Of a stretch of DNA of 64,000 bases, positions 7,527 through 51,271 are shown piece by piece. The number at the start of each line of letters is the position of its first letter. Within the stretch, counting starts at the first letter, position 1. Location of the stretch: the NCBI GenBank assembly GCA_000004985.1, contig GG738873.1; one strand, 5' to 3'. This stretch comes from Naegleria gruberi. Taxonomy: Eukaryota. The notes beneath the pieces were generated by a model. That model worked only from the letters and a program-made list of their open reading frames with translations, was not told the origin of the DNA and ran no database searches. The position numbers and the translations under genes are program-made.

Positions 7527-10500
7527 ATGCCTGAAATTCTTGGCAATACAACCCACGCTAAACATGCTGTGGGATTTAACGTATCCCTCTTGGTAAGTTT
7601 CGAATAGAGAACATCTTTACTAATATTTCAATAATTAACAGAAAGGTGGTACTATTACTCAAACGATTGTAAGTTGTTTCCAATAGAATCAATGTTTTCA
7701 AACCATTCAGATTGGTGCAATTATCACAGGTTTAGTTGTTGCATCAACTGTTGCTACTATTATTCTCGTTTCTGTTGGTGTTGGTTACTCTAGTCCAGGT
7801 AAGTATTTCAGTGTTGAATTAGGCTGGTTTATTCTTGCTATTTTATGTTTTCCTCACATGCCTTCCTCTGGTGCGCTGTTAAATCGTGTTATCTCTCCAA
7901 ACATTGTTGATGTTCTAAAACATTCGAATAGTTGCCAATCCTGACACTGCCACAACATTCAAGCGTGTTGCTGTTACTCTTGATGTTTTGGCCAATGACA
8001 AAGATCCACGTGGTGGTAATCTTACTTTAACCCAAATTGTTGTTTCTCCTGCACATGGTACCGCAAAGATTGTTTCCAACTCCAAGATTGTTTATCAATC
8101 AAATGGAGCATTCTCTGGTAATGACACTTTCAGTTATGAAGTTACAAATTCTTTCATGACTGCAAATGCAACTGTAACTGTACAAGTATTGAATAGAGCT
8201 CCAGAAGCTGTTCCAATTACTAAAACTGTCTCTAAGAATGTCAAGAATAGTTTGATTGACATTTTTAACTTTGTTGGTGATAATGATCAAAAGATTAGTG
8301 ATCCAGATTCTGATGTATTGTATGCTGTTTCTTATGATGGTAGAAAGATTTTGAGTGGAAACTCTGATTCTTTTGGTTCCATTACTGTTGATCCATATAA
8401 TGGTTATTACTATACTCCTGTAGATGGTTTTAATGGAGTTGAACAATTCAATTATACTATTAGTGATGGTAATGATACTTCCACTTCCACTATTACATTG
8501 ACTATTGCCAATGACGCTCCAGTTGCAGTTGACAATGTCTATAACGTTCCAAAGTATGGTAGCATGGTATTGGATGTCTTGTCCAATGACTATGATATCA
8601 ATGGTGATGATTTCAATATTTCAAGTGCTGCTGGTACTGGTTACGGAGCTATTGCTGTTGACAAGAAGTTTATTACCTATATTACCTCGAGTACTCGTAC
8701 TAAGAAGTATTCTGATTCTTTCGAATACACCATCTCTGATGGCAATTTGGAAGCATCCGCTATTGTAATTGTCAATGTTTACAATTCTGCCCCAACTGTT
8801 TACTCCAAGACTGTTATTGTTGCCAAGAGCTCTGTTAACAATCTCATTACTGTAGATTACAATGATCCAGATCGTAAGGATTTGGTTTCTTTGAGCCGTG
8901 TTACTCCTGCTTTGGCTTCATTGTCCCCTGCTGCTTCATTGTTGGTTACAACCACCTATGAAAATGTCTTTTTCGAATGTTGTGAATGGATCAAAGTTGA
9001 AACCAATAATTATACTATTAGTTTCACTCCAGTTGCCAATACTGTCTATACTCAAACTTTAACTGTTACCATGACTGATACCGAAGCTGAAGGTACTGGT
9101 ATTATTACTATTATTGTTCAAAATACTCCTCCAGTTGCTGTCTCTGATTCTGCTGAATGTAATAAGAATCAACAAGTCTTGATTAATGTTGTTGCCAATG
9201 ACTATGATCAAAATAGTGGAGACACTGCCTTAATTCAATTGTCAGCTGTTGGTTGGACTAGTGCCACAACAAAGGGTGGTTCTGTTCAACTTTACAATAC
9301 CACACATGTCTTGTATACTGCTCCAAGTAATTTCTTGGGTGATGATGTTGCTACCTATGTCATTACTGACCAAAGTAAGGATGCTCAAGGTAATCCAGAT
9401 TCTACCAGTTATTCTAAAGGTACTATTAACATTAAGGTCATTAATAATCCACCAACTCCTGCTGATGATACCATCACCATTTCAAAGGGTGTAACTTCTT
9501 CTTTGAATGTTTTGGACAATGATTCTGATCCAAATGATGGTGCTTCATCTGTTTATACTATTAATTCTGTTTCTGCTTCTTCAATTAAGAATATTTTGGC
9601 TACTATTCAAAAGACTAGTGGTGCAAAGGATACCTTGTCTTATACTGCTAACAATGAAGAATATACTGACAAGCTCACTTATGATGTCACTGATCAAGAC
9701 GGCATGACCTCCACCTATAAGGCTACTGTTACTTTGAATGTTATTAACAATGCTCCTGTTGCTAAAGATGATACCTATTCTACCAAGTGGAATAGATCTG
9801 TTGAATGTTCTGTTAAGGATAACGATGAAGATATTAACGGTGATTTGGCCAAGTCCACAATTTCCATCACTTCTAATCCATCTAATGGTGCTGCTTTGGT
9901 TGTTGGTGATAAGATTGTTTATACTCCATCTAATGGATTCGTTGGAACTGACTCATTCAAGTACAAGTTGAATGATGGTAGTTCTGCAAATGCTGATTCT
10001 AATAGTGCTACTGTTACTATTACTGTAACTAATACTGCTCCAGTTACTGTTGCTGATTCTGCCACTACTCACTGGAATAATCCAAATGGTATCTTGGTTA
10101 GTCCATTGACCAATGATAATGATCCAGATGGTGATGCTCTTGTTGTTGTTTCTGCTTCTTCTGATTCTTCAGCTGGTGTTGCTTCAGCTGTCGATTCTCA
10201 AACTGTTAAATTTGTTCCAAACACTGTCTCTGCCACCACTGGTACTAAACAAGTCACCTACTATGCTTCTGATTACAATATGCAAACTGCTGGAACTATC
10301 AATGTTCAAGTTACTAATACCAAACCAGTTGCCAATGCTGACTCTTATACTCTTCACTGGGCTGCTTCTACTACTCAATTGAGTGTCTTGTCAAATGATG
10401 CTGATGCTGATAATGATGATCTCTCAGTTGGAAGTGTTAGTGGTAGTTCTGCTGCTGTTAACAGTGGTTCATCAATCACTTATACTCCAAAGAAGGATGG

Positions 10501-13500
10501 TGTTACTGATATATTCCAATATACTGCTACTGATTCAGTTACTGCTTCTGATGCTGCCACTGTTACTGTCAAGTTCACTAACAATGCTCAACCATCTGTC
10601 AGTGATTCCTCAACCACCATTCACTGGAGAACTTTTGCTTCTCAAAACAATCAACAAGATTTCACCGTTCTCAACTCTAACACTGATGCTGATAGTGATT
10701 CTCTTTCATTGACTGTTGGCGCTTCTGCTACTGGTATTTCTGGAGCTTCTTGTATCAAGACTAGTGATTCTGTTCCTAAGGTTAGAGTTACTGCTCCAAC
10801 CAAGACTGTTGGTACTGCCTCTTGTACTTTCACTGTTTCTGATGGCTTAGCTTCAAGCAGTGCCAAGACCTCTGTTGTCATTACTAACAATGCTCCAACA
10901 TGTAGTGATATTACTGTTTCATTCAATCCAAGTTATATTTCATCTGGTCAATCTTTCTCAATTGCTTCATCTGTAACTGATGCTGATTCTAATGATATTC
11001 CATATTTGGTTCCAGGAAGTGCCATCATTGTTGGTTCTACTTACCCAAGTGATAGTTTCCAAGTTTCTGGAAGTAATTTGTTATTCAAACCAATGGCTAC
11101 TGTTGGTGATCGTAATTATGCTTACACTGTTACTGATGGCGTTTCTACCTCTGCTCAATGTGCCTTCAAGATTGTTGTTAGCTCAGTATCTTCCAGCGAT
11201 TATGCTCAAAGCTTTGATGTTCATTGGGCTGCCACCTCTGTCAAGCTCGATATTTTGGCCAAATTGACCACTTCAACAATTGTTCGTTTGGGTTCTACCG
11301 CTGCTTCTGGTACTGCAACCATCACTGGTGGGATTCTCTATTTCACACCATTGAGAAAGATCTACGTTGACACTTTCACTGTAATTGTTGCTGATTCAGG
11401 AAATGTTGAAAGCACTGTCACTGTCACAGTTTCAACATTCAACAATGTTCCAACCGCTAGTCTTGCCACTCAAACTATCAATTGGGGAACTTCCAAGACT
11501 ATTGACCTCTTGGTTAATTATGCTGATACTGACTATACTAATGGTCTCGAATCTAAGGGAACAGTTAGTAGTATTGATAAGACATCTCTCAGTACTAAGG
11601 GTACTGTTTCTGCTCTATCAGGTAGCTCTGTTACTTATTCTGCTCCAGCCAATTATGTTGGTACTGATAGCTTTAAGGTTACTGCTACTGATGGTTTGGC
11701 TACTGTCACATTCACTGTCACTTTTAACATGATCAATACTGCTCCAGTTACAAACACTAAATATTTCAGTATTCACTGGGCTACTCACAAGGCTGGTTAT
11801 TCAATGAATTTGGCAACTGATGTCACTGATGCTGAAGGAAATACCTTAACTTATTCTGTTACTCCATCAAGTATTTCACCATCCACTGCTGGTACCGTTG
11901 CTATGGGAACTTCACCAAATGCTGTTGCCACTGGTCCATCAAGTGCTTACTTGGGTAAATTCTCATTCACTTATTCTGCCTCTGATTCTATTGCTACAAC
12001 TCCTGGTACCGTTCAAGTTACTGTTTACAATAACATGTCCACTCCAGTTGCTGACTCTAAGGATGTTCACTGGAAGGCTACTGGTATTACTCTTAGTCCA
12101 TTTGCCAAGTTTGCTCCAACCTTTAAGGATGCTGATGGTGACAGCTTGTCATTTGTTAGTGCTTCAGCTCAAAAGGGTACTGTTAGTACTGGAACAACCA
12201 CTTTAACTTACAATGCTCCTGGAAATGCCATTGGTGCTGATGTTGTCTCTTACAAATTCACAGATGGTGCTGAATCTCTCCAAAATGCTGCCACAATCGT
12301 CAATATTAATCTCTTCAATACTGCTCCACGTGCCATTGATAAGACCGCTAGTGGCAAATGGAGTTCAACAATTACAGTTGATTTGAGCAGTTCTTGTGTT
12401 GATGATGATTCTTTGGATACTGCTACTTTCAATGGAGCTGTTTCAAGCATTGTTGGTGGTACAACTTCTGTTTCTGGAAAGAGTGTTTTATATACTCCAA
12501 CTAGCTCACTTACTTATACTGGTTCTAATGGTGTTTATACTGCTACTGGTTCATTCAAATTCCAATGTACTGATGGTTTGTCAACTGCCACTAATCCTGG
12601 AACTGCTACCATTACAGTTACTAATAATGCTCCAACTGGTACTGGAAAGAGTACAAGTATTAATAGAGATTACACAAAGACTACCTATGATTTCACTTGG
12701 GCTGATATTGCTACTGTTTCTGATGCTGATGGTGACTCTATTTCATACATTAACTTTGCCTCTTCTGATGCTGCAATCACCGTCTCTAATATTGGAACTG
12801 GTATCAGATTGACCACTTCAAACAAGTTTGTCAATGGTGCCAAGTCTATTACCTTCAAGCTTAATGATGGTCTTCATGACAGTGTTTCACAATTGACTTT
12901 CACTGTTACCTTTGTCAACTCTGCTCCAGTCTGTGCCTCTAACTCTATTACTTTGAATAAGAAGGATTCAATTGATCTCTCTACATTGTTCTCTGCAACT
13001 GATTCTAACAATGATCCATTTACTTATGCTTTGACTAGCTCAATTTCCACTGATTTTGGTACAACAGTTGGTACTGTCTTTACCGCTTCAGCAACCCGTA
13101 GTGGTGCCACTTCTGTTACTTACACTGCCACTGATACTCTTGCTACCAGCACTGCCTGTACTATTTCAGTAACTATTAACAATAGAGCTCCAGTTGCTGA
13201 TGACATTTCCTATCAAGTTGTTCCAGTTGCCAGTTCATATGTTCACTCTTACACCTATGTTGCTACTGATGCTGATTCTGATACTTTGACCTATACTGCC
13301 ACAAGTAATGATTGTGTTTCTCAAAATCTTGCCACTACTCTCACAATCTCAACTTCAGGTGCCATCACCTTCACCAGAAAGTCAACTGCAGTTTCTGGAA
13401 GTTGTAAACTCTACATTACTGTTACTGATAACAATCAATTGACCAATGCTCAAGATACTGCCACTATTACATTTGTTATCTCATCAACTTCACCAATTGC

Positions 13501-14662
13501 TAAGGACGACAGATTTGAAATTAACCAAGGTCAAACTATTAGAATTTTCGCAAGTCAAATCTTGGCCAACGATCTCGATGAATTCAATTCCACATCCACT
13601 CTTACTCTCACCAGTATTTCATGCCCAGACTCGACCTATTGTCACAAGACTCCAAGACAAGTTACTTACAATGGTTTACCAGCTGTTGAACTCGATTCTG
13701 ATTCTTCTACTTGTCAAGCTGATAAATTCAGATATGCCATGACAACTGGTATGGGTGCTGTCAGATATGCTGACGTCTATGTCGAATTTAAGAATTGTTA
13801 CTGTGCTGCCAAGATTGACTTTGTCTTTTTACTCGATTCCTCCAAGTCAATTGGTTCAACTAACTTTGATTTGATGAGAGATTTGTCCAAGAGAATTACT
13901 GGTAGAATGAAGATTGCTGACGATGCCATTAAGGTTTCCATTGTCAAATTCCACAACAATGGTACATTGGCTTTGAAACTCTCCTCTGATGGTACCTTAA
14001 TTAATAGCACACTCACAACTATGTCCTACGAGGCGGGAAGTACGGCTCAAGTGCCCGGACTCAGAGTTGCTGTTGATGCTTTGAGACCTGCCAATGGTGG
14101 TAGAGCTGATGCTGACAAGGTTATTTATATTTTAACTGATGGATTGGCAAACGTTCCATGTTCATGTACCTCTTGCAGAAATGAATGGCAAGCAAAGCCA
14201 TCAGTCTTTTACAATTCAATTCAAGTTAATATTTTAGGAAAGTACACTGGAAATACCTTGAATTCTCAATTGGACAATTTATGTGCTTACAAGTATACTG
14301 ATACTTCAGTTTTGAATGGACAAACTTGTTCATACTGTTCCTCAAGTAATTATGCCTATTGTTTACCATGTGCTGATGCTGTTCCAATTGCTTCAAAGAT
14401 TAATAGTTGGAAGCGTAATGCTAGTGGAGTTGTTCCAACTGATCTTGATAATCCTTACAATGGAAACAATGCTGTTCAATGGAAGATTGTTGCTATGGCT
14501 GTAGGTGATGCCATGTCAAATGTTTGGGGAGCCAGACAAATCCAAGGTATGAATTATGATTCCACAAGAGCTATGACTGTTTCTTGGACTGACTTGTCTT
14601 CAACTATGAGTGAAATTGTCGATCAATCTTGTAATCAAGTCACAACTACTGCTGCTGCTTAA
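7527..14662 (+). CDS. giant type II membrane protein: N-terminal signal-anchor, ~18 tandem cadherin-like/VCBS-like repeats, C-terminal vWA domain; exons 7527..7592, 7642..7668, 7711..7798, 7932..14662
   Basis: The 2224-aa ORF (7988..14662) starts at TTG and is open upstream to an acceptor at 7931. Three short upstream exons (66, 27 and 88 nt) with GTAAGT donors and CAG/TAG acceptors encode MPEILGNTTHAKHAVGFNVSLL/KGGTITQTI/IGAIITGLVVASTVATIILVSVGVGYSSP, which forms a TM helix. The body repeats ~100-aa units carrying the motifs (V)L(A/S)ND.D.(D/N)GD and Y(T/S)P..(F/Y).G.D.F.Y...DG. The C-terminus has DFVFLLDSSKSIG, a DxSxS MIDAS motif typical of vWA domains. Confidence 0.75.
8000..13500 (+). 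repeat. tandem ~300-nt coding repeats (cadherin-like/VCBS-like modules) inside the giant gene
   Basis: The motifs NDxDxDGD, APVAxDD and HW recur about every 100 residues through the ORF. Confidence 0.6.
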
Positions 14663-37977: not shown

Positions 37978-40900
37978 TCATCTTCTCCTTCTTCTTAATT
38001 GGTCAAAAACTGAATTATTCAAAATATCCTGTGCTTGAGGTCTGATGGCACTGTCCTTTTCCAACATTGATAAAGTCAAGTCAATGATATATTGAGAATA
38101 TTGACCAGGCTCTTCCATTTTCTTCTTTAATAATTGTGAAACTTCCTTTTGATCCTTAGTGACATAGAGTTGACTAATTGATGTAAAAGTGTCCTTAGTT
38201 ATTATTTGATAAATAGTTACACCTAAACTGTAAATATCAGTGTTATAGAAATACTTGCCACCATATCCCAATTCTTTAAAAAACAATTTAAAATTAATGT
38301 CAGTTATCTCTTAATTACTTACCAGGTGACATGAATAGAGGAGTGCCAGCATATGAATTATTGGTAGAACCTTGATTTGCTTTGGCCAATCCAAAATCTG
38401 CAATAACTATTTCAATATTATCCTTATCTAAACTCTTTACAAAAATATTGGATGGTTTGATATCTCTGTGGATGAGTTTCATTGAGCTGTGAATATAATC
38501 AAGAGCGCTACACATTTGGAAAATGATTTGCAATAATATCTGTTCTGAACATGTAGAATCATCTTTGGTCAATTGAACCAAATCTCCCAATTCATAAAAG
38601 TCCATATCAATACACAACAATTGATCCTTACTAATAAAAAAGTCATTAACCTTAAGAATATTTGAATGGTGAATATTCATCAATTGAGTTCCTTCCTTCA
38701 TAAAATTATTCAACTCCTCTGTTGATGTGTATTTGATTACTTTGATTGCCTTCATGGTGTTTGTTTTGGAATCAAAAGCTTTGAATACTGAACCAAAGGC
38801 ACCTTGACCAATTTTAACCAAGTCCATATATCTTGAGAGTGGATTGAAGGATTGACTGCTACCTCCAGTAGATGAGATACTAGTGAGAGGAGTCAAAAAC
38901 ATACTGGCATCTGATGGGAAATCACTTGATTGACCAAGCTCAATATTTTGAATAGTTTGAAGTTCGTACGCTTTTTGAGATTTTAATTTCCAAACACAAA
39001 CTGAAAATACCACTACAATAATAGCTATGATAATTATTGCAATCAACACAACTGGAATTGTAACACCAAGGATGATACCAAGAGTTTGATCATCAATGGA
39101 TCTGGGAATTGAGTTAGAAACATTAGGTGCATAATAATAAGCAAGTTCTTGAACTGTGAATAGAGATAAGTGATTAGTGACACATTCCAAATTGAAATAG
39201 AGTTTACCTTCCTCTCTTTTGACAATTGTCATTGATTGAGTCAAAATACCAGAATTAGACCAAGTTTGTTTCACTGAATCATAGTAACTGCATGAAATGT
39301 TAGTATCTGTCTTGTCATTTGTAAACAAATTATTGAACTTGATTGAAATTGGTTTTGTAAGGCCACTGACAGGTACTTGAGCTCCACTTTCTTGACTATA
39401 AATGGATAATTCAAAAATTGGTCTATTTTCAAGAATGTTATTTAGTGTGGTATCCTTCTTGATCAATGAAGAGCTGTAGAATAATTTGACATTGTTTGGA
39501 ATACTTAATTGAGAAGTAAAATCGGATGGGAAACTGGCCGAAACTTGAATAGTATCTTCAATCATTATAGAAATTTCCTTTCCATTCAATTGAGTTTCCA
39601 AATCCAGACTTTCAAGTGAATAAGTCCCCAATGTATTATTCGTAGTCAACCCACTCAACAATAAATATTTAACTTGATATCCTACAATGAGTGATTGTTT
39701 CTCTAATTTTGAGGAAAATCTCTTAATCAAAATAGATTGTAAATTTGATAGCTCAGTATAGTGAGTTTCGTCCAATAGAGTTAATCTTAATGCAGAAGTA
39801 TAGTACTGCTTGGATTTGTCCATTCCTGAATAAGTCCAATCAAGCCACTTTACAAGATTATCAGTCATGGAATTGATGGAATTTTCATCTTGTAAAGTGA
39901 GATCGAGAATTGAGAAAATATCACAAATTATTGGAAGGACCATTTGAATAAGTTTTTCATCGACTTTGGATGTCAAACTCTGTACATTATTTAGGAGTGA
40001 TAGCATTTCATTCAAATTGGAGTTTAGAGTTTGAATTTGAGAATTGGAAGTTTCGGTAAACAATCTTCCAGTGAAATTTTCAAAATTAGTTTCGTTTAAA
40101 AGGAGAATTGACATGAGGGAATTAATGGAATTGACAGTTTCAATCTTCAATGGTTCTACTCTTTTTAAAGTATAAAATTGATCATTTACATAATTCAGTT
40201 TAGACGAAATTGAGTTTGTAATCGAATTTGGAGCTTTCATTGTAATTGTTCTTGTAAGCGTTCCAATAGATCCATATCTATTGACAAGTTTTACAACGAG
40301 ATTTAAATCTGAACCATCTCTACTGAGTGGAAGTCTGGTTACAAGGTTTTTCTTTAGAGTGTTGGAAAGAATTGATATTCTTTCTCCTTGTTGAGAATGA
40401 ATTTCCATTACATAATTCGAAACTGGTTCTGAAGGTAAATTGAGACAAGAAATGGTCATGAAGCTTTCGAATGCATAATTAACAGCTTCGTTTCTTAAAT
40501 TGTAATAGGAACATGAAAATCTTGGAGTATTGTCAATTCTTGTGGAAAGTGAAATATTCGATTGACCAAACTCATTCCAAGTTGACAACTCAAATGAATA
40601 AAATTCACCATCAATCAAATATTCATTTCCAATATTCAACTCTGATGTAACAGAATTACCACCAACATTTCTAATGGTTTCTCTATTTCTCAAGAATTCG
40701 TCCACATTCTCACCCACTGCAACATTCAATCTTCCTTCCACCAATTTCCAACTTGTTGTAACACTAGAAGTAGAAGAAATAAGAGTCTTTAAAACCAATG
40801 GACGATGACTAGCATGAATAGGAGGTCTATAAGGGCTACTAAGTTTTGGAGCTTGAATGGATGAATCAGTCAACTTGATAAAACCAATGAAATTGTAAGG

Positions 40901-43900
40901 AATTGAAACGAACGAGTTGGTATAGTAAACTATTAAATTGATAGAGTACATTCCTTCAGATAAATTCAAAGATGCTGGATTAAAAGTCAACGATTGTTGA
41001 GTATTTTGACTTGTACATAAATTTGAAGAAATGGTCAACTTGGTCAAAGGATCAACTTGGAAACATGAATAAGAATAAGTGAAATAATCCTTAATAGTAA
41101 ATGTCGTAATGAATGGATCATCATTTTCAAATGTTATAGTAATGGCTCCATTTCTAATAGAATGTGTTCTATTGACTTGTGTCAAGACATGATCCAATCT
41201 GTCAAATGTTTTGTAATTGAAATAGTATGGAAGTGATAAACTTTCATATGTTTTCAAGTGTAATCCAACTACTTGTGCATTAGAATTGTATTCACTATCA
41301 ATTAGTTCATTATTATAAATGTTGACTAATCTAAACATTTGCTTTTGAAAAACTTCAGCATTTAAAAGACTGAAAAATCCAGAAAAAGTATACGAAATGG
41401 AACTATTCAATGAATTCAAGCTAGATTCTACAATACAATTATGTCCAACACATGAAAATGGAGCATCCTTAACATTATCTCCAAACCAAGTGAAAGAAGG
41501 TGGTAAACTCTTGAGATTTGGTTGAACTCTTGTAATATCTCTTGAACTAGTTGCATAATTTAACAAGTTGACTGAATCAAGTTTCAAAGTGAGTACTTTC
41601 AGATAAGAGGCATCCAATGGAATGGTATTTAACAAGGAAATTGGAATGTTGATAATTGACTTGTTGTTATATTGTAAAAGATGGGATGAAATAGTTTGAG
41701 GACAATTTTCACATGTCCACACACGTTGAACTCGTTTGAAGGAATGGTAATAGTCATCTGTGTTGGATCTAACAATCAAATCTTGACTTGGTGGGAGAGT
41801 GGTGAGTAAATCATTGATTGAGGAAACAAAACTTCTTCCTTTCATAATGTTTAAAGATTCAGTTGAGTTGACCATCAATGAAATGTTATATCTGCTATCA
41901 GAATCAAGTAAAATTATTGATCCATGTACAATTGAGTGATCATATCCGAGTAAAATCTTGAAATAAGAACTAGTCCACAAGCATTGAACAAAATCCTTCT
42001 CACCAAATCTTGACTGTTCGTCCAAATTCATAATTTGATCACATGAGAAAATACTACCTGCTTGTTTTGAAATATTGAGAATGTTACTGAATGGAGAATA
42101 GATTAAAGCATTAGGAACATCTAGAAGGACATGATGATGTTGACATTTGTTTCCAGCAAATCCTTCATTACATAAACAATTATCAATTCCAATACAGCTA
42201 CCTCTCGATGAGCAAACATTTGAATTATTGGAATAGAGACCAAAACAATTGCTGTGTTGACATTCCTCGCCTCCATATCCCGTGTTACAATTACATTGAT
42301 TTGGAGCTTGACATTTACCTCTTCCATAACATACAGAGCTAGAATTGGATAGAATTCCAAAACATGAAGTCAAGGAACAATCCTTCTCTTTCCAGCCCTG
42401 ATTACATGTGCAGTTATCATAGGAGCTACATTGACCATTACCTGAACAAATGTATGAAGTATTAGACGAAAGTACATTGTAACATTTTAAAAATTCACAT
42501 CTACTACCACCCCATTCTTTTGGACATTTACAATCACCAGGTCCATCACATGTTCCGTTGTTTTGACAAACACTAACTCCAACAGATTGACCAGCACAAG
42601 TAAAATCATCACAAAAAGCACCAAAATAACCTATTGAACATGTACAGTTATTGTAAAAGTTACAGACACCGTGTCCAGAACATACACCTGGAGATGTTTT
42701 CACAATTCCATTACAATTATATAATTCGCACTCATTGCCATAGTATCCAAATGGACAGGAACAATTATTGTAAGCTGTACATTGACCTCTTCCAGAACAA
42801 ACTGAAGAGTTGGAAACTGCCATACCAAAACATGTGAAATTCATGCATGCACTTCCAAAATATCCCTCCACACATGAACAATTGTTTGGTTTAATGCAAC
42901 TTCCATGAGAGGAACAAACAGATGGGTTGGTATTTCTAATTCCAAAACAATCAAACTGTTCACAATTAGTGCCATTGTAAAGAGCTGTGCAGTTACAATA
43001 GTTTGGAGATTGACATGTTCCTCCACCTGAGCAAACATTTGTGGCCTGGTAATTGACTCCATAACAATCAAATTCTTCACAATTAGCTCCATAATAATTT
43101 GTATTGTAACATGTACATTCCAAGCTTGTACTGTTAAAGTATTTCTGGCTACTTCCACAAGATTGGAAAGACATGAGTCGAATAACATTATTTCCAGTAT
43201 CTGCAATGTAGATTTCACCAGAATTTCCTAATGCTAATCCTTCAGGATCACTGAATTGAGTATTGAGAGCAGCCATGAAATCTGGAGAGCTTCCTTTAGA
43301 TCCTGTTCCTGCAAGAGTTGAAATCTTACCATTAGTAACCTTTCTAATTCTCTGATTTTCCTTATCAATGAAAATCAAGTCACCTGTCGAGGTCACTTCT
43401 ATGGCGCCAGGCTTGTTTAACGAAGCTGACAAGGCACTTCCTCCATCTCCTGAAAAACCAGCAATACCATTACCTGCCACTGTTGAAATAATTCCACTTT
43501 GTAAATCAATTTTACGAATTACATGATTGATATTCTCAGTAAAATACAGAGCTCCAGAATATAATGCTATTCCATCAGGACCATTTAATTTGGCATTGAC
43601 TGCCAAATTTCCATCTCCTGAATATCCTGCACTCCCTGTTCCAGCAATAATATAAACATCCAAACCATCAATTTTAAGAATCATATTGTGTAAATAATCT
43701 GTCAAGTAAATAATGACTTTGTTGGGGTCATTAATCATGACGAAATGATTACTAGTGAAACTAGCTAGGTTATAGGTTGTTGGTGATGAAATTGGACCTC
43801 CTGTACAAGAACCTGCAATAAGAGAAACTGTGTATCCAGAATCCACTCTCTTCACAGCACAATTATTCTCCAGAAAGAATATTTTAGAATCGACCTGTCG

Positions 43901-45298
43901 TTGTAAGCCATAGTTTGGAGTGGTAATAACAGGACCAGTGGTACTAGTTGCACTGGATGAAGTTGTTTGACCAATGATACCTGCAAGATTGGTAATTATT
44001 TTGGAGGAGAGATCAATACTTCTCACTGCATAACTATTGGAATCAGCAAGTGTCAACACTCCATTCAAATAATAAACACTTGTTGGTTTTGAAAGGAAGG
44101 CAGAAAGAGCAGGTATTCCACTACCAAATTGTTGACTACTTGTACCTGCTATAGTTGAAATGGTGGATGCTTGTCCATCAGACACTGTTGCCTTTCTTAT
44201 TCTATTATTTCCCAGGTCAGCAATGTAAATATTTCCATCGCCATACACAACATTTGATGGATTTGAAATGCAATTTGTGGCAGCCGACCCATCATTAAAA
44301 CCTGGTTGTAAATTAACACCCACAAACTCAGTAATGAGATAGGGACTTTGAATAATGTTTTTTCTCCTGATTGTGTGACCAAGTGAATTGCAAATATACA
44401 TGTATCCACTTGCAATAGTCAACCCTTGAGGTCTTATTAAATCGCTATTACCAACGACTTCAGATACAGTATTGGAAGACAGTTTACAAACTCGATCATT
44501 ATTAGTATCAGAAAAATAGAGATTGTAATCATCACTTGAGAAGAATACTCCATACGGTGAAGCCAATTTCAAATTTAATGGTGGTTGAGTCATGTCACTT
44601 GATCCACTCATACCAGCAATACCAACTACTCTAATCACCATTGGAGTGCTATCCAATTGAGTTATTTTACGAATTATATGATTACCAGTATCTGCAAAAT
44701 AAATCTCTGTATTTGCTGGATTAATTGTAATACCACTTGGACTACTCAACTTGGTTAGAAGAGCAATTCCATCCCCAGAAACATCTGCTACTCCAGTTCC
44801 AGCAATTGTTGTAATTGTACCATTCACATAAATTTTCCTAATACGGTGATTTCCAGTATCAGTAAATACAATGTCACCATTATTCATCAAAATTATGCCT
44901 CTAGGTTGATTAATTGCAGCATTGACAGCTGGACCACCATCTCCTGAGAAACTATTTGCCACGCCATTGCCAGCAATTGTTGTGATCTTTCCAGTTGAGT
45001 CAATCTTTCTAATTCTATTGTTTGATGTATCGCAAATGTACATTGGATAAATTGTGTTAGGTGTAATTGCAATACCAGATGGTCCTTTTAATGAAGAGGC
45101 AGTTGCTGGTAGATTATCTCCAACAACATTGCCGCCACCTGCCAAAGTTGTCATGTTAAAAATTGGCACCGAACAATGACTCTCAACACATGTCAAAACA
45201 AACACAACTGCTAGCAATAGAATGAAGGGAACTACAACCAGATTGTGTACGGACACATGCCTGTCCATGCGTGTGTGAGAGCGATGTGAAAGAGGCAT
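37978..45298 (-). CDS. receptor protein kinase: signal peptide, NHL-repeat beta-propeller region, ~10 EGF-like modules, large Cys/Asn-rich stalk, TM helix, Ser/Thr-type kinase; minus-strand exons 45298..38323 and 38273..37978
   Basis: It has a signal peptide, about 14 NHL-type repeats (G.G..G.SGDGG.A..A.LN.P.GI......Y..D..N..IRKI), Cx..C.C..G..G..C EGF-like repeats, a TM segment (ILGVTIPVVLIAIIIIAIIVVVF), and GxGxxG, VAIK-like, HRDIKPSN and DFGLAK kinase motifs. A 49-nt GTAAGT..TTTAAAG intron (38274..38322) rebuilds the APE motif as GTPLFMSP|E|LGYGG. Confidence 0.85.
42130..43200 (-). repeat. tandem EGF-like (C-x-C-x-x-G-x-x-G-x-x-C) coding repeats in the receptor kinase ectodomain
   Basis: Roughly 31-aa Cys-spaced units recur (CQSPNYCNCTALYNGTNCEQFDCFG ...). 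Confidence 0.6.
43200..45150 (-). repeat. NHL-type beta-propeller repeats (coding) in the receptor kinase
   Basis: GDGG.A..A.L..P.G.A and YIADT.NN.IRKI-like units repeat. Confidence 0.55.
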
Positions 45299-46417: not shown

Positions 46418-47867
46418 TTAGACCTTTCCATTTTGACTAACTGGAACAACATCGAACGACAATTCATTTTCCAAGAGAATTCCCTTAATAACAGTTGATG
46501 GTCCAAGATTTTGGGTGGCATTAGAGAGGACAATAGTACCATTGGCAAACCATGATGACATATAACCAGTGTAAGAACCTTGAATTCTTTCCAAGAGAGC
46601 ACCAGGATAAGCTGGGGTAGCAACACTCTTACGGAGTTGTTCAATGATTGGAGTGAAAATAATTGGGGCATTCTTGAGAGCAATATTGTTAGCAACTGGA
46701 GAGTTCAATGAAGCCAAAGTGATCATTACAAAATCAAGTTCTGGAACAACCAATGGTTTGGCATTGTAGCCGTAAACAGAACCTCCCTTGGTCAAGTAGA
46801 ACAAGTTATTTTTGTCATCATACATGGTTTCAAAAGCACCCAAACCAATGGTGAATGTAGCATCGTTAGCCAAGAAGGTTGGCATGATGAATTGTCTCAT
46901 GGCATCCTTTGAAATTGGAACAGGGCACGCAGTGGCATTGTTAAGAGAGCTATAGGTGAAACAAGAGAAGAATTTTAACATATCATTAGCAGTACTGTAC
47001 ATGCCACTCTTGGGCCAACAACATGGTCAAATAATCTGGATCTCTACCAACAACCATCTTGGAAAGAATATCAGAAGAGTAATCAAATCCAGTGTTAGTC
47101 ATGCCCAACTTGTCGAAAATGTTAGTCTTACAGAATTCTCTGAATGATTTACCTGTAATCAATTCAAGAACTCCACCCAAAATGGTAAAGTCAACATTAC
47201 TGTAATAACGATCACTTATGGATGGAGCCATAAATTGCAACAAGTCAACTGTGGTCTTTCTGTATTCATCAAAAGTCATACTGCAATTATATGGATCACA
47301 AGGAGAAGTTCTAGACAAACCAGCACCGTGACTCATTAATTGTCTGAAAGTAATCTTGTTAGTTGCTGTCGTAAAGTACTTGTTAGTATATTGAAAGTCT
47401 TTAACATAGTTAGTGATTGGTTCATCAATACTCTTAATAAGACCCAATTCTTGAGCAATCAAAGCAGCCATACTGGTAAAAACTTTAGTGACAGAGGCAA
47501 CTCTAAAGATGGAATCGGCAGTTGGAGTTTCAGTTTCCTTACCCTTAGTACCAACTTGACCAACACCTTGGTTCATAACAACAGTATCTCTATATTTGGC
47601 AAGAATAATTCCGGATCCATTCTTTACACCATTGTCAACCAAAATAGATTTAACCATATTATTCTTGAGTTCTGTTAAAGCAGATTGAAGAGTTGAAACA
47701 TCAATTTCTGCAGATCTTGGAAGAATGTTACATTTAGGGTTTGCATCAGATGCCTTCAATACTCTGACTTGAGACTTGAGAGATCTAGCACTTGCCTTTG
47801 GATTGACATCAGAACTTATCTTAGTGTAAGCAACGAACCAATCAAGACCTGGCATCCAGAAGTACAA
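46418..47867 (-). CDS. beta-lactamase/transpeptidase-like serine hydrolase with C-terminal lipocalin-like domain; minus-strand exons 47867..47052 and 47008..46418 (43-nt intron proposed)
   Basis: It has SxxK (FRVASVTKVF), YSN, HGAG and GMYSTANDM motifs. Overlapping ORFs 46986..47867 and 46418..47002 differ by one frame. A GTTGGT..CCCAAG intron at 47009..47051 would give ...ILSKMV|SGMYSTANDMLKF. Confidence 0.7.
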
Positions 47868-49012
47868 GTTGCCACATTTGAGAATCTAAGAACTTCATTT
47901 CCGTAACCTCCCTTAAACAATGTCAAAGAATCGATATATGCAGCTTCTTGAATATCTCTAATAATGAAAGCATTATTTGGTTGGTAATCCAAATCAAAAT
48001 TAACATAATTTCCACCCAAATTAATGTTCATAATAGTTTGACCATCTTGATAATACAAAGTGGCATTGGTTCCATCAGCATTACACAAATAGGTACCTTG
48101 GTACTTGGCTTGATCTTGAGCTGGAGGTAAAACAAATGCTGGCATGACAGAAACATATTGACTCATAAGTGTTCCAACAGCCTTAGCATAAATTTGTTCA
48201 GCAATATATGTAGCAAAGACATCTCTATTGGAAGAAATTGAAATGATTGCAAACTTGTATTCTGGAACAAAGATCATGTGAGTAGAAAATCCGAGAACGC
48301 TTCCTCTCTTAGATCTCTTCCATACGTTATACTTGCTATCGTGACTCATTTCAAAGGCAAAACCAGTTGCATTTTGAGCGTCTGGAGAAATATATTGAGG
48401 AGTGAAAAATTCACGAACAGTTTGACGAGTAAGAATACTTTCATCATTCAAGATTGAGGAGGCATAATAGGTCAAATCTTGCAATGTAGAGTAAGCATCC
48501 ATGGAACCTTCACACCAACCAGACTTTAATTCAGAATCGAATGTGATAGTGGCATTGCCAGCATAGCTAGGAGCAACATGAGTGGAAACAGTGAGGAGAT
48601 CAGAGACGAGACCAGAGTTGGACATGGAGGCACTTTTCATTACATCCTTAAGATTAGAAGAGACGGATTGACCATTAATTTTAGCAAGAGCTTGACTCAA
48701 CCAACAATAACCAAAGTCAGAATAAACTGGTACAGAGTATGGTTCATGTACAACTGAAGAATGTCCAGGAAGACCAGAAGCAGCCATTGCCTTAACAACT
48801 TCATCATTAGAAAGATTACAATCAAATAGTTTGCAAGGAGCTTGTCTTCCGAGACCACTCATGTGTGTGGACAATTGTCTCAAAGTAACAGAGGAAATTG
48901 GAAACTTGGAGAATGTACTAGTGAGAGCATCATCGAGTTTCAACTTTCCAGCATCTCTCATTCTGAACATTTGAGTAGCAACCAACAATAACGAAAATTT
49001 CGTAAAAAGCAA
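47816..49012 (-). CDS. beta-lactamase-like paralogue lacking the N-terminal ~100 aa and the catalytic Ser (LFTK in place of SVTK); pseudogene or non-catalytic paralogue
   Basis: It aligns to the neighbouring gene from the helix after SxxK through the lipocalin-like C-terminus. The frame opens only at 49030 after a TAG. There is no room for an upstream exon before the next ORF at 49037. Confidence 0.5.
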   Translation of the reverse strand: MLFTKFSLLLVATQMFRMRDAGKLKLDDALTSTFSKFPISSVTLRQLSTHMSGLGRQAPCKLFDCNLSNDEVVKAMAASGLPGHSSVVHEPYSVPVYSDFGYCWLSQALAKINGQSVSSNLKDVMKSASMSNSGLVSDLLTVSTHVAPSYAGNATITFDSELKSGWCEGSMDAYSTLQDLTYYASSILNDESILTRQTVREFFTPQYISPDAQNATGFAFEMSHDSKYNVWKRSKRGSVLGFSTHMIFVPEYKFAIISISSNRDVFATYIAEQIYAKAVGTLMSQYVSVMPAFVLPPAQDQAKYQGTYLCNADGTNATLYYQDGQTIMNINLGGNYVNFDLDYQPNNAFIIRDIQEAAYIDSLTLFKGGYGNEVLRFSNVATCTSGCQVLIGSLLTLR

Positions 49013-49036: not shown

Positions 49037-51271
49037 CTATTTTTTTTTATTTGCCAAAATTTCTTTCAATTTTTTGAATACTGATTCTCTCTCCTTTCCT
49101 TCATCTGTAAACGAAAAACCATACAACAACACATTTGAAGGTGGAATACGTGTATTTCTATTTTGAACTCCAAAATCCTCAAATTCTTTTGACTCATCAT
49201 TCCATTGGAGCACAGAGAGATGAATTCTCTCATCATAATACAATAAATATTTTCCAACCTCATAATAATCTTGGCTCATTTGAGTTTTAAATGCAACCAG
49301 TGTTTCCAATTGTAAATGTTTTAGAAATTGTTTTTTCTTATCAGGAACAAAGTAATCATGAGATGAAATTTGAATTCTACTTCTTCTAGTGGTTTCTTCA
49401 TTAATGGTGACAGAGTTATTCGAAATTGAATTTTCTGTCAACCAAAAATCCAAATTGGTTTCATTGGAAAATAAAGACTTTGTTTTTTCTATAAAATAAT
49501 CTTCATACCATTTCCAAGTTGCATCTGCAAGCATTGATTTGATTTTGTTTAATCCTTTTAATAAATCTAATTCGAAAGCTGGTGGTGTGATAATGTCAGG
49601 AACATTGTTAGGTACAACATTATTTCTAAATATTTCAATAACTCCATCCTTTCCATTCAATCCTACCCATTTAGAATTATCATAATTAAATTCACGAACT
49701 TGCAAAACAGGTTTGTCATTTTCCATTTTAATTTTAAATCCATGAAAATCAGAAATTCCTTTAAATGTATTGACATTATCTTTAAATAAGGATTTAAAAT
49801 CAAACATTCTTTCTAAAAATGATATTTCAGGAACATTTTTAGAATAAATTTCTTTCTTTTTTTCAATAAATTCAAGAGGACTATGACATGAATTATTTTG
49901 AAAATAAATTGAATGAATTGAAAAAAATTGATCTATATCAGTATGAGTATGTCCAACAATCATGGTGCCAATAATTACTTTTTTTACCCACCCCAAACTA
50001 ACTAATAAACCTGCGAATGCTACAGCGTACTTGTTTTTGAGTTCTTTTGAGCAATTGTCTGCTTGTAAATACAGAATTGATGGTAAATTTCCTTTTTCTT
50101 TTTTTAAATTATATAAATATTCATACAGAACTGTTAGTGCCAAATTGGCTCCACCTTCACAATTAGGAAGTTTTAATTTAATCTGATATTTTCTTCCATG
50201 TGAAATTAGTCCATAATTTGATATGTTTAATTTTTTAACAGCATTACTATTTTTAGTAGCATTGGCAATTACTGGATATGGTGTTGCTTGTGCACCATCA
50301 ATTATTATAGATAAATACTTGTTTGGATTAGCTATTGCTTTTTCTATTTTTTTTTTAAAAACAAATCTTTCTCCACAACATTCATTAATATGTTTGGCTC
50401 TTGCTTTTTTTGCTTTTTCTTGCTCAACTTCATTTGTTGATCTCTTTAAATTATTTAATCTAGCACACTCATCACATTTTCCTAATCTAGTATTTTTTGG
50501 TAATTTAATATTGGGAAATAAGTTTTTTGCTTGTCTTTTAAAAGTATCCAACCTATAGTAAGCACCTTCTTGTGATGAGACATATATTTCATATATTGGT
50601 TTCCAAGTATTGAAACCAGTAATGTGCATTTCATTTGCATTAGGTAATGGTTCAGCAAAGTTTTCTGCGAATACTGAAAACCAAGATTTAAAATTTGTGA
50701 GCTTTTCACTATCTTCCTTAATTGGTGAATGTTGTTCGTCAATTTTAGATAAATCAGTCTTTTTGGATTTTTTCAATTTATATGAAGAAATACCATAAAT
50801 ATTTTTGAACATTATTTCACAAACAGGTTTTCCGTTAATTGTATAGTTGTTTGAGTGTTGTGTAATATTTCCAACAAATTTCAACTTGTCTTTTTCCTTC
50901 AATCCTGCATAGAATGTTCTTTTTTCAGTTATTTCCGAAATTGTAAAATTAGTATTGCAATGCTTAACGCAACAATTTTTCAAGATACATGAGGAAATCG
51001 CATTATCATTCAATAATTGTTTTGATTTTTTTCCTAATTTTTCCTCTGGTGATCTTAATCTTCGTTTTGTTGATTTGTATGTACGTTTTGGTTTTGTATT
51101 AATATTGGCAATCTCTGATGAATTAGTATTATTATTAATATTTTTATCACGATTTAATTTTAAATAAAGATTAATTGGTGATTCATCCTCTAATTCCGAG
51201 TTATTAAAATCTTGATAATTATTATCATCATTGTCCTGTTGAAAGTATGAAAGTAATTCACTTGCAGACAT
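49037..51271 (-). CDS. 744-aa ORF with DDE-transposase-like motifs and Cys-rich N-terminus; candidate transposase or domesticated derivative
   Basis: Motifs include SIIIDGAQATP (cf. the Harbinger/PIF first D), ~78 aa, YLQADNCSKE (cf. the DNA second-D motif), ~39 aa, then the acidic cluster GHTHTDIDQ. The N-terminus has CILKNCCVKHC...CDECARL. The ATG sits in an A-rich context and the ORF is intact. Confidence 0.45.
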   Translation of the reverse strand: MSASELLSYFQQDNDDNNYQDFNNSELEDESPINLYLKLNRDKNINNNTNSSEIANINTKPKRTYKSTKRRLRSPEEKLGKKSKQLLNDNAISSCILKNCCVKHCNTNFTISEITEKRTFYAGLKEKDKLKFVGNITQHSNNYTINGKPVCEIMFKNIYGISSYKLKKSKKTDLSKIDEQHSPIKEDSEKLTNFKSWFSVFAENFAEPLPNANEMHITGFNTWKPIYEIYVSSQEGAYYRLDTFKRQAKNLFPNIKLPKNTRLGKCDECARLNNLKRSTNEVEQEKAKKARAKHINECCGERFVFKKKIEKAIANPNKYLSIIIDGAQATPYPVIANATKNSNAVKKLNISNYGLISHGRKYQIKLKLPNCEGGANLALTVLYEYLYNLKKEKGNLPSILYLQADNCSKELKNKYAVAFAGLLVSLGWVKKVIIGTMIVGHTHTDIDQFFSIHSIYFQNNSCHSPLEFIEKKKEIYSKNVPEISFLERMFDFKSLFKDNVNTFKGISDFHGFKIKMENDKPVLQVREFNYDNSKWVGLNGKDGVIEIFRNNVVPNNVPDIITPPAFELDLLKGLNKIKSMLADATWKWYEDYFIEKTKSLFSNETNLDFWLTENSISNNSVTINEETTRRSRIQISSHDYFVPDKKKQFLKHLQLETLVAFKTQMSQDYYEVGKYLLYYDERIHLSVLQWNDESKEFEDFGVQNRNTRIPPSNVLLYGFSFTDEGKERESVFKKLKEILANKKK

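Follow-up and report, generated by a model that had tools for sequence, protein, structure and literature searches.

The GAIN domain, with its GPS motif, has been studied almost solely on adhesion G protein-coupled receptors (GPCRs) and on polycystin-1, where its cleavage is linked with a tethered agonist that acts on a membrane domain with several passes. The combination of GAIN with a seven-transmembrane (7TM) region is thought to originate in stem holozoans (PMC12716839). In Naegleria fowleri, 7TM-RGS proteins were found to carry GPS motifs accompanied by EGF and lectin domains (Bosch et al., JBC 2022, PMC9283941). Here, we describe a gene located on the minus strand, at positions 45298..37978, of a 64,000-nucleotide stretch of Naegleria gruberi DNA (GenBank assembly GCA_000004985.1, contig GG738873.1; the whole stretch is further referred to as the window), which is predicted to encode a receptor kinase with an ectodomain containing NHL and EGF modules. 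The most unusual part of the predicted protein is a juxtamembrane GAIN domain, in which the GPS motif for autoproteolysis is intact.

As judged from its reading frame, splice signals and homologs, this locus is one real gene, encoding a single-pass receptor kinase of 2,423 amino acids (aa). The listing of open reading frames (ORFs) contains a minus-strand ORF of 2,327 codons (45298..38315) without interruption, which ends with ...GTPLFMSPGK and a stop codon; by our own arithmetic (GC content of ~0.32-0.37, ~7% stop codons assumed), the chance of 2,327 stop-free codons is estimated at ~1e-77. Coding exon 1 (38323..45298; all features of the gene given below lie on the minus strand) is part of this continuous ORF, runs from aa 1 into codon 2326, of which it contains the first base, and encodes the signal peptide, the entire ectodomain, the transmembrane (TM) helix and kinase subdomains I-VIII. 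It is followed by a phase 1 intron of 49 nucleotides (nt) with GT..AG ends (38274..38322; GTAAGT...AAAG), whose sequence, read from 38322 to 38274, is GTAAGTAATTAAGAGATAACTGACATTAATTTTAAATTGTTTTTTAAAG. Each of the three frames is closed by stop codons within this intron, and the break is therefore not explicable by a simple frameshift. Its removal joins TCA CCT G/AA (the slash marks the junction) and gives ...GTPLFMSP/ELGYGG..., the split codon being that of Glu in SPE, the equivalent of the APE motif. Coding exon 2 (37978..38273) encodes aa 2326-2423, i.e., kinase subdomains VIII-XI and an Arg-rich C-terminus, and the translation of the spliced model ends at a TGA stop codon at 37978.

The splitting of the APE motif by an intron, and its restoration as GTPLFMSP/E, had been proposed in an earlier reading of this DNA (further referred to as the original prediction), and the comparison with homologs agrees with it. 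The junction reading SPELG[YL]GGKY is common to D2VI80 (the public protein model for this locus), the N. gruberi paralog D2VPQ1 (P0001) and an N. fowleri homolog (P0130), all of them collinear across the junction, and the C-terminus encoded by exon 2 is kept in D2VI80, P0001, P0129 and P0130. The models of the locus itself, of the paralog P0001 and of the N. fowleri homolog therefore lend independent support to the predicted intron. Moreover, the Pfam Pkinase profile is complete (1-263/263) only once the intron is removed. The original prediction had also considered that the kinase exon might belong to a separate gene; the layout of the gene speaks against this, as the ectodomain, the TM helix and kinase subdomains I-VIII are all located in exon 1, and for the same reason the fusion of receptor and kinase does not depend on the intron.

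The hydropathy scan indicated just two hydrophobic segments in the spliced protein (aa 15-40 and aa 2071-2106), which fits a type I topology. The former is a part of a signal-peptide-like segment (aa 1-40, 45179..45298; hydrophobic core at ~17-38), equivalents of which form the N-termini of the paralogs P0001 and P0128, and the latter corresponds to the single TM helix (aa 2073-2106, 38981..39082). The 2.4k-aa type I membrane protein announced by the original prediction is thus recovered. The distribution of N-glycosylation sequons (28 in the ectodomain vs. two in the cytoplasmic part) was uninformative with respect to topology and was dropped.

A juxtamembrane segment of 50 aa separates the TM helix from the protein kinase domain (aa 2157-2415, 38005..38830, interrupted by the intron), which was recognized by the Pfam Pkinase profile across the splice with 171.5 bits (cut-off 31.7) and an E-value of 3e-50. 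The predicted catalytic core is intact, with every catalytic motif kept: G-loop GQGAFGSV (2164-2171), β3 K2186, αC E2202, HRDIKPSN (2277-2284; HRD 2277-2279), DFGLAK (2301-2306; DFG 2301-2303), SPE (2324-2326) and R2403 of subdomain XI. The Lys residue in HRDxKxxN indicates Ser/Thr specificity, and the Ser/Thr-type kinase originally predicted from the HRDIKPSN and DFGLAK motifs next to a TM helix is in agreement with these data. Among solved structures, the nearest kinases were MST3/STK24 (100 bits), SLK, CDPK, CaMKI and NEK1/7, with near-equal scores and E-values from ~1e-27 to 1e-23; no single group (STE20, CAMK or NEK) is thus favoured by these scores. Outside the family, the top matches in a database dominated by metagenomic sequences were Ser/Thr kinases with ~100-140 bits, several of them labelled as bacterial, which we read as a reflection of the database composition and not as a sign of bacterial origin of the kinase.

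The domain list of the original prediction was right in the domains it named and incomplete in that it omitted ~1,000 ectodomain residues (aa 1057-2072), for which no Pfam family was found at E<=10. The N-terminal part of this region is a stalk of ~650 aa (aa 1057-1715, 40154..42130), which is poorly modelled and whose C-terminal half is β-rich and looks like Ig/FN3-type sandwiches. The remaining part (aa ~1716-2056, 39131..40153) is recognizable as a GAIN domain with helical subdomain A followed by β-sandwich subdomain B, which contains the GPS motif. Already by eye, the last 50 residues before the TM helix, ISCSYYDSVKQTWSNSGI...LECVTNHLSLFTV, are GPS-like. A profile built of aa 1057-2110 of this protein and two paralogs was used in an exhaustive HMMER scan of 1.84 billion representative proteins. 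This resulted in 37 proteins (E-values down to 8e-17), including four full-length ones, while ~30 of the 37 align only with the last ~200 positions of the profile, at their own C-termini. In 33 of the 37 relatives, the motif C-x3-H-[LF]-[ST]-x-F is placed before a single TM helix, at a distance of ~30-45 residues. Several relatives match the full Pfam GPS profile with scores around its threshold of 22.5 bits (P0146, 28.1; P0139, 22.4; P0133, 20.6 bits), and a relative from Naegleria lovaniensis is already named 'GAIN-B domain-containing protein' in UniProt. The same profile also retrieves sea-urchin GPS proteins with one predicted TM helix (P0163, E-value 4.7e-4), and one sea-urchin match clusters with 'adhesion GPCR E2-like'.

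An alignment of 31 GPS regions of the relatives, with the sequence of the protein described here as its first row (alignment A4), was then turned into a profile and compared with the PDB. All 23 distinct sequences found were adhesion GPCRs, aligned on their GPS at C..W..G..C.C.HLT.F, and the best matches were ADGRG6 (E-value 1.7e-9) and ADGRG3 (1.2e-8); the 31-sequence profile was needed to obtain these matches, as a three-sequence profile was insufficient. The AlphaFold2 (AF2) model of aa 1700-2072 consists of eight helices and then a β-sandwich (mean pLDDT of 58.6, with values of 65-88 in most of the sandwich), i.e., it has the organization of a GAIN fold, with helical subdomain A, β-sandwich subdomain B and the GPS strands integrated in the latter. 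Taken together, the motif, the profile matches and the modelled fold indicate that aa ~1716-2056 is a homologous GAIN/GPS domain with an intact catalytic site. A word-index search with aa 1076-2143 gave zero matches; as the paralog P0001 has 79 five-residue words in common with this segment and aligns with it with 1,058 bits (phmmer), this result was regarded as an artefact and not as absence, and negatives of this type of search are not to be trusted for S/N/T-rich queries.

The GPS motif, C..Y..W..G..C-x3-H-L↓S-x-F (the arrow marks the scissile bond), adjoins the membrane, and the predicted autoproteolysis site, H2043-L2044↓S2045 in C2039-V-T-N-H-L-S-L-F (39164..39172), is located 28 residues before the start of the TM helix (residue 2073), a spacing similar in ~30 relatives. 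In alignment A4, His of this site does not vary, all 31 sequences have Ser/Thr, and Leu occurs in 30 of them; conservation of H-L-S/T in all but one of the 31 relatives argues for selection on the site. In the GAIN domain of CL1, disulfides are formed by C801-C832 and C820-C834, and cleavage occurs after L837 (Arac et al., PMC3321182). The first GPS Cys and the Cys at position H-4, both invariant in alignment A4, are equivalent to the C801-C832 pair and are represented here by C2003 and C2039. The second pair (one Cys that follows the invariant Gly and one at H-2, equivalent to C820-C834) is complete in four of the 31 sequences and entirely missing from the other 27, and such joint retention or loss is the behaviour expected of a true disulfide pair. 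It is known that H-x-S/T is insufficient for cleavage, which also requires the Gly of a Gly-Cys motif and, at C1+2, an aromatic residue (Pohl et al., PMC13062082); at the C1+2 position of L1 (F803), Tyr and Trp are tolerated, and the F803Y variant is fully active (PMC13062082). The protein described here has all of these determinants, i.e., H2043, S2045, the aromatic Y2005 and G2017, and from this we predict that the bond between L2044 and S2045 can be cleaved. The domain probably cleaves itself at HL↓S during biosynthesis.

Upstream of the stalk, the ectodomain is composed of NHL-type blades and EGF-like modules. The NHL region (aa 41-709, 43172..45178) exceeds the Pfam cut-offs for NHL (77.5 bits, cut-off 20) and TEN_NHL (94.2 bits, cut-off 27.1), and blade dissection indicated 12 blades, six well preserved and six degenerate, which probably form two six-bladed β-propellers. 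Its best PDB matches are a teneurin-like protein (7e-54), SOQ1, NHLRC2, teneurins, TRIM71 and the sensor of Mycobacterium tuberculosis PknD, the last of which is matched directly (1rwi, E-value 1.3e-8). The EGF array (aa 714-1056, 42131..43159) contains, according to its Cys spacing, one partial module with four Cys residues and eight six-Cys modules with a period of 38-40 aa. It is of the teneurin type and was recognized by the Pfam profiles EGF_2 (75.8 bits, cut-off 22.1), EGF_TEN (77.9, cut-off 65) and EGF_Teneurin (53.7, cut-off 24.3). The domain searches on the spliced protein, which the original prediction had suggested as a check, hence placed NHL, EGF and Pkinase above the Pfam cut-offs; the long run of NHL-type repeats was confirmed, and the originally proposed number of about ten EGF-like modules is close to the eight complete and one partial found.

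Full-length proteins with the order NHL-EGF-stalk-GAIN-TM-kinase are encoded in N. gruberi by this gene, D2VPQ1 (P0001), D2VMZ5 (P0002), D2VPM5 (P0128) and D2VGC0 (P0164/P0129), so that the gene has at least four paralogs, and in N. fowleri by A0A6A5C4P6 (P0165; also P0130). P0001, P0002, P0128, P0164 and the N. fowleri protein (P0130/P0165) are collinear with the protein described here over 95-98% of the length. Its identity to P0001 amounts to 42% in the NHL region, 50% in the EGF array, 54% in the stalk, 51% in the GAIN domain and 74% in the kinase. A second type of relative, NHL-EGF-TM-kinases deprived of stalk and GAIN, is represented by D2VSK9 (P0182/P0301) of N. gruberi and A0A6A5BWY7 (P0175/P0294) of N. 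fowleri. A further ~30 shorter relatives have the organization NHL/EGF-GPS-TM with a short tail and no kinase; those looked up come mostly from Naegleria, and also from Planoprotostelium, sea urchins and metagenomic sequences. In the exhaustive scan and in homology searches, full-length relatives were found in Naegleria only, and the lineage-specific protist architecture envisaged by the original prediction is therefore borne out, in the form of a multigene family with N. gruberi as the host of the present member.

Some models within this family differ from the common pattern. In D2VGC0, SIHGNIKTSN replaces HRDIKPSN (HGN for HRD), the G-loop is altered and the DFG region reads ITDFGLN, the GPS being intact (CQVSHLSLF); judging by these substitutions, it is a probable pseudokinase paralog. 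The models of D2VMZ5 and D2VPM5 continue with unrelated C-terminal residues right after GTP[LI]FM (...FMVCYLS... and ...FMVSFFN..., respectively). These ends look like read-through of an intron that starts 7 nt upstream of the splice site of the gene described here, i.e., after FM and in phase 0, vs. after SP+G and in phase 1, which would mean either a shifted intron position among the paralogs or a mis-modelled gene. In addition, three N. gruberi kinase-only models of 280-290 aa, D2V4R8 (P0176), D2VEV7 (P0179) and D2VDH4 (P0180), belong to the same kinase clade, and their N-termini coincide with the beginning of the juxtamembrane segment (...NPFSRY..IGQGAFGSV). Like D2VI80, they may be cut-off models of further receptor kinases.

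We consider it likely that the gene product is a single-pass receptor Ser/Thr kinase of type I topology, belonging to a family confined to Naegleria, with NHL and EGF modules engaged in binding and a GAIN domain that cleaves itself. This explanation is favoured because of the single uninterrupted ORF with its collinear paralogs, the complete kinase profile and motifs, and the evidence for GAIN/GPS. In such a receptor, the NHL/EGF part would serve as a binding or adhesion surface, and the GAIN domain would cut itself between L2044 and S2045. The N-terminal fragment of ~2,000 aa would stay non-covalently held via the last β-strand of GAIN (SLFTVQE...), and a membrane fragment of ~380 aa would carry the kinase. 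More speculatively, ligand binding or a mechanical pull on the N-terminal fragment might alter or remove the GAIN cap, and a changed oligomeric state or conformation of the membrane fragments, e.g., dimerisation followed by trans-autophosphorylation, might switch the kinase. On its outer side the protein could then behave as adhesion GPCRs or polycystin-1 do, and on its inner side as a receptor kinase does. An extended version of this idea is put forward tentatively, as a possibility that may well prove wrong: GAIN would act as a juxtamembrane gate, in which self-cleavage at HL↓S and the loss of the 2,000-aa fragment, driven by force or by a ligand, activate the kinase, making the protein an 'adhesion receptor kinase' that works without the tethered-agonist/7TM step and GAIN a portable, output-independent module used also outside Holozoa.

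Several observations weigh against a self-cleaving and gating GAIN domain, and some of them favour its main rival, in which the gene is the same and GAIN is an uncleaved spacer, with dimerisation induced by a ligand, e.g., a component of bacterial prey or matrix bound by the NHL propellers. The isolated segment of this protein aligns with positions 2-44 of the 45 of Pfam GPS (PF01825) with only 14.1 bits, i.e., below the threshold of 22.5 bits, and a search of the PDB with the three-sequence profile, which spanned the GAIN region as a whole, gave no relative and just a chance glucuronidase at E 2.2. The second GAIN disulfide is absent, its positions being occupied by I2018 and T2041. HLS is not sufficient for cleavage, as BAI2 carries it and stays uncleaved (PMC13062082). 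A tethered agonist needs a 7TM pocket, and the Naegleria protein has none. The kinases D2VSK9 and A0A6A5BWY7, which lack GAIN, imply that the kinase output does not need this domain, and the degenerate kinase of D2VGC0 suggests that some members of the family may signal without catalysis. Furthermore, we know of no experimental precedent for a cleaved GAIN domain regulating a single-pass kinase. Nevertheless, conservation of H-L-S/T, of the C1+2 aromatic residue and of Gly in ~30 relatives is difficult to reconcile with a role as a spacer only, and the GPS module always precedes the TM helix by ~30 residues, a position it also has in receptors that are cleaved. For these reasons we regard the spacer model as rather improbable, and self-cleavage of GAIN as the better explanation.

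Two other alternatives concern the gene itself. A single recorded protein, which is also the sole one for the locus, shows 100% identity to it: D2VI80 (EFC43550.1, XP_002676294.1; annotated as 'protein kinase'), whose model extends over 37978..38680 with the same splice; no ectodomain model for this locus was returned by the protein database. If this annotation were right, the locus would encode a separate small cytosolic kinase, and the upstream ORF would be another gene or non-coding. However, D2VI80 is a 217-aa protein corresponding to aa 2207-2423, it starts at the internal M2207 and lacks kinase subdomains I-III, and hence, deprived of the G-loop and the β3 Lys, it cannot be a complete kinase. 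Moreover, there is no stop codon between M2207 and the TM helix and ectodomain, and four paralog models as well as the N. fowleri model are full-length fusions, which makes this alternative hardly credible. As the public model covers 217 aa only, the 2,423-aa protein proposed here is a re-annotation. The gene might also be an unexpressed or decaying paralog without a function of its own, as it is one of at least five N. gruberi paralogs, it shares just 42% identity with the nearest of them in the NHL part, and half of the 12 blades are degenerate. Against such decay speak the 2,423-codon frame, intact in an AT-rich genome, the intact splice signals, the retention of all catalytic residues of both kinase and GPS, and the 74% identity of the kinase to paralogs; we consider it very improbable.

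In the remaining part of the window, five neighbouring ORFs are identical to proteins of N. gruberi NEG-M (EFC43542..EFC43552), which are encoded, like D2VI80, on a scaffold of 461,873 bp. The genes flanking the receptor kinase are unrelated to it: a class-V aminotransferase is encoded downstream, and ORFs of the beta-lactamase family are located upstream. Two of the latter (46989-47867 and 47819-49012, minus strand) are adjacent and slightly overlapping, and both match Pfam Beta-lactamase with different halves of the profile, so that they probably belong to one gene, interrupted by either an intron or a frameshift. The next ORF (49040-51271, minus strand; 744 aa) contains DUF7869 (E-value 3.9e-43) and no second domain. 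On the plus strand, an ORF of 2,224 codons (7988-14662) encodes 14 Big_9 (bacterial-type Ig) domains, cadherin-like domains and a C-terminal VWA domain, and appears to specify a second giant surface or adhesion-type protein in the window; its listed start is TTG, and the true 5' end probably lies upstream.

The connection of GAIN with one TM helix and an intact kinase separates the role of GAIN itself (cleavage, shedding, force sensing) from that of the 7TM domain. As Naegleria mounts the EGF-GPS cassette on at least three outputs (7TM-RGS, short tail and kinase), it offers a natural comparison set, and this in a host that is far from animals and culturable in the laboratory. If the gate reading is true, GAIN is already used outside Holozoa, and is older or more mobile than its pairing with 7TM. 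It should be stressed that annotation of this gene as a 217-aa fragment, together with several apparently mis-spliced or probably truncated paralog models, means that surveys of the Naegleria kinome and receptors based on such models will under-count receptor kinases. The homolog of N. fowleri is, furthermore, a surface-exposed kinase of a lethal pathogen.

Among the described systems, adhesion GPCRs (ADGRG6/GPR126, ADGRL1/latrophilin and ADGRE5/CD97) share with the Naegleria protein a large adhesion-type ectodomain including EGF modules and a GAIN domain with GPS (C..W..G..C-x3-HL↓S/T-x-F) directly before the first TM helix, as indicated by both profile and fold matches. The cleavage determinants are conserved as well, and of the two GPS disulfides the protein described here has the first and lacks the second. 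In contrast to adhesion GPCRs, which have seven TM helices and couple to G proteins, this protein has a single TM helix and a Ser/Thr kinase as its output, and it comes from a discoban amoeba, i.e., from outside the stem holozoans in which the GAIN/7TM module is placed. An identity as an adhesion GPCR was rejected, since only one hydrophobic segment follows the GPS, and then the kinase. The 7TM-RGS proteins of N. fowleri come from the same genus and have an EGF ectodomain with the GPS before the membrane, but they carry seven TM helices and a C-terminal RGS domain in place of the single TM helix, kinase and NHL propellers found here. Polycystin-1 and sea-urchin REJ proteins resemble it in having a long β-rich extracellular region followed by a juxtamembrane GAIN/GPS, and suREJ1 is a single-pass GPS protein. 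The profiles REJ, PLAT and PKD_channel of Pfam gave no match at E<=1 for the whole protein or at E<=10 for aa 1076-2075, and as the protein also spans the membrane just once and has a kinase as its output, an assignment to this group was not accepted.

M. tuberculosis PknD (1rwi) likewise has an NHL propeller outside the cell and a Hanks-type Ser/Thr kinase inside it, connected by one TM helix. In PknD, however, the order is reversed (the kinase is N-terminal and the sensor C-terminal), there is one six-bladed propeller, and EGF and GAIN are missing. Among the 60 best solved kinases listed, in which STE20, CAMK and NEK types lead, neither the PknD nor the PknB kinase occurs. In view of the reversed order, the eukaryotic-type kinase, the 12 blades and the presence of EGF and GAIN, a PknD-type identity was rejected, only the NHL part matching 1rwi. 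The original prediction considered an NHL sensor on a receptor kinase unusual, a view that has to be corrected for the bacterial precedent of PknD and for the existence of a whole gene family in Naegleria. Teneurins also combine an EGF array with an NHL propeller of the same Pfam sub-families, and they and teneurin-like proteins are the best PDB matches of the NHL region. Unlike the type I Naegleria protein, in which NHL precedes EGF, they are type II proteins with a YD shell, a toxin-like C-terminus and no kinase; the N-terminal signal peptide, the C-terminal kinase and the lack of any YD or Rhs Pfam match led us to reject this identity too.

The GAIN-less NHL-EGF-TM-kinases of Naegleria (D2VSK9 and A0A6A5BWY7) belong to the same kinase clade (54-63% identity) and have a single TM helix, but they lack the ~650-aa stalk and GAIN, and their EGF modules run straight into the TM helix. 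In the literature we found no description of GAIN joined to a single-pass protein kinase or of this Naegleria architecture, and a survey of protist transmembrane kinases makes no mention of Naegleria, NHL, EGF or GPS (PMC10463195). Each part is thus known singly, i.e., NHL sensors on bacterial kinases and GAIN/GPS on 7TM, 11TM and Naegleria 7TM-RGS proteins, and it is their combination in one receptor for which we found no earlier account.

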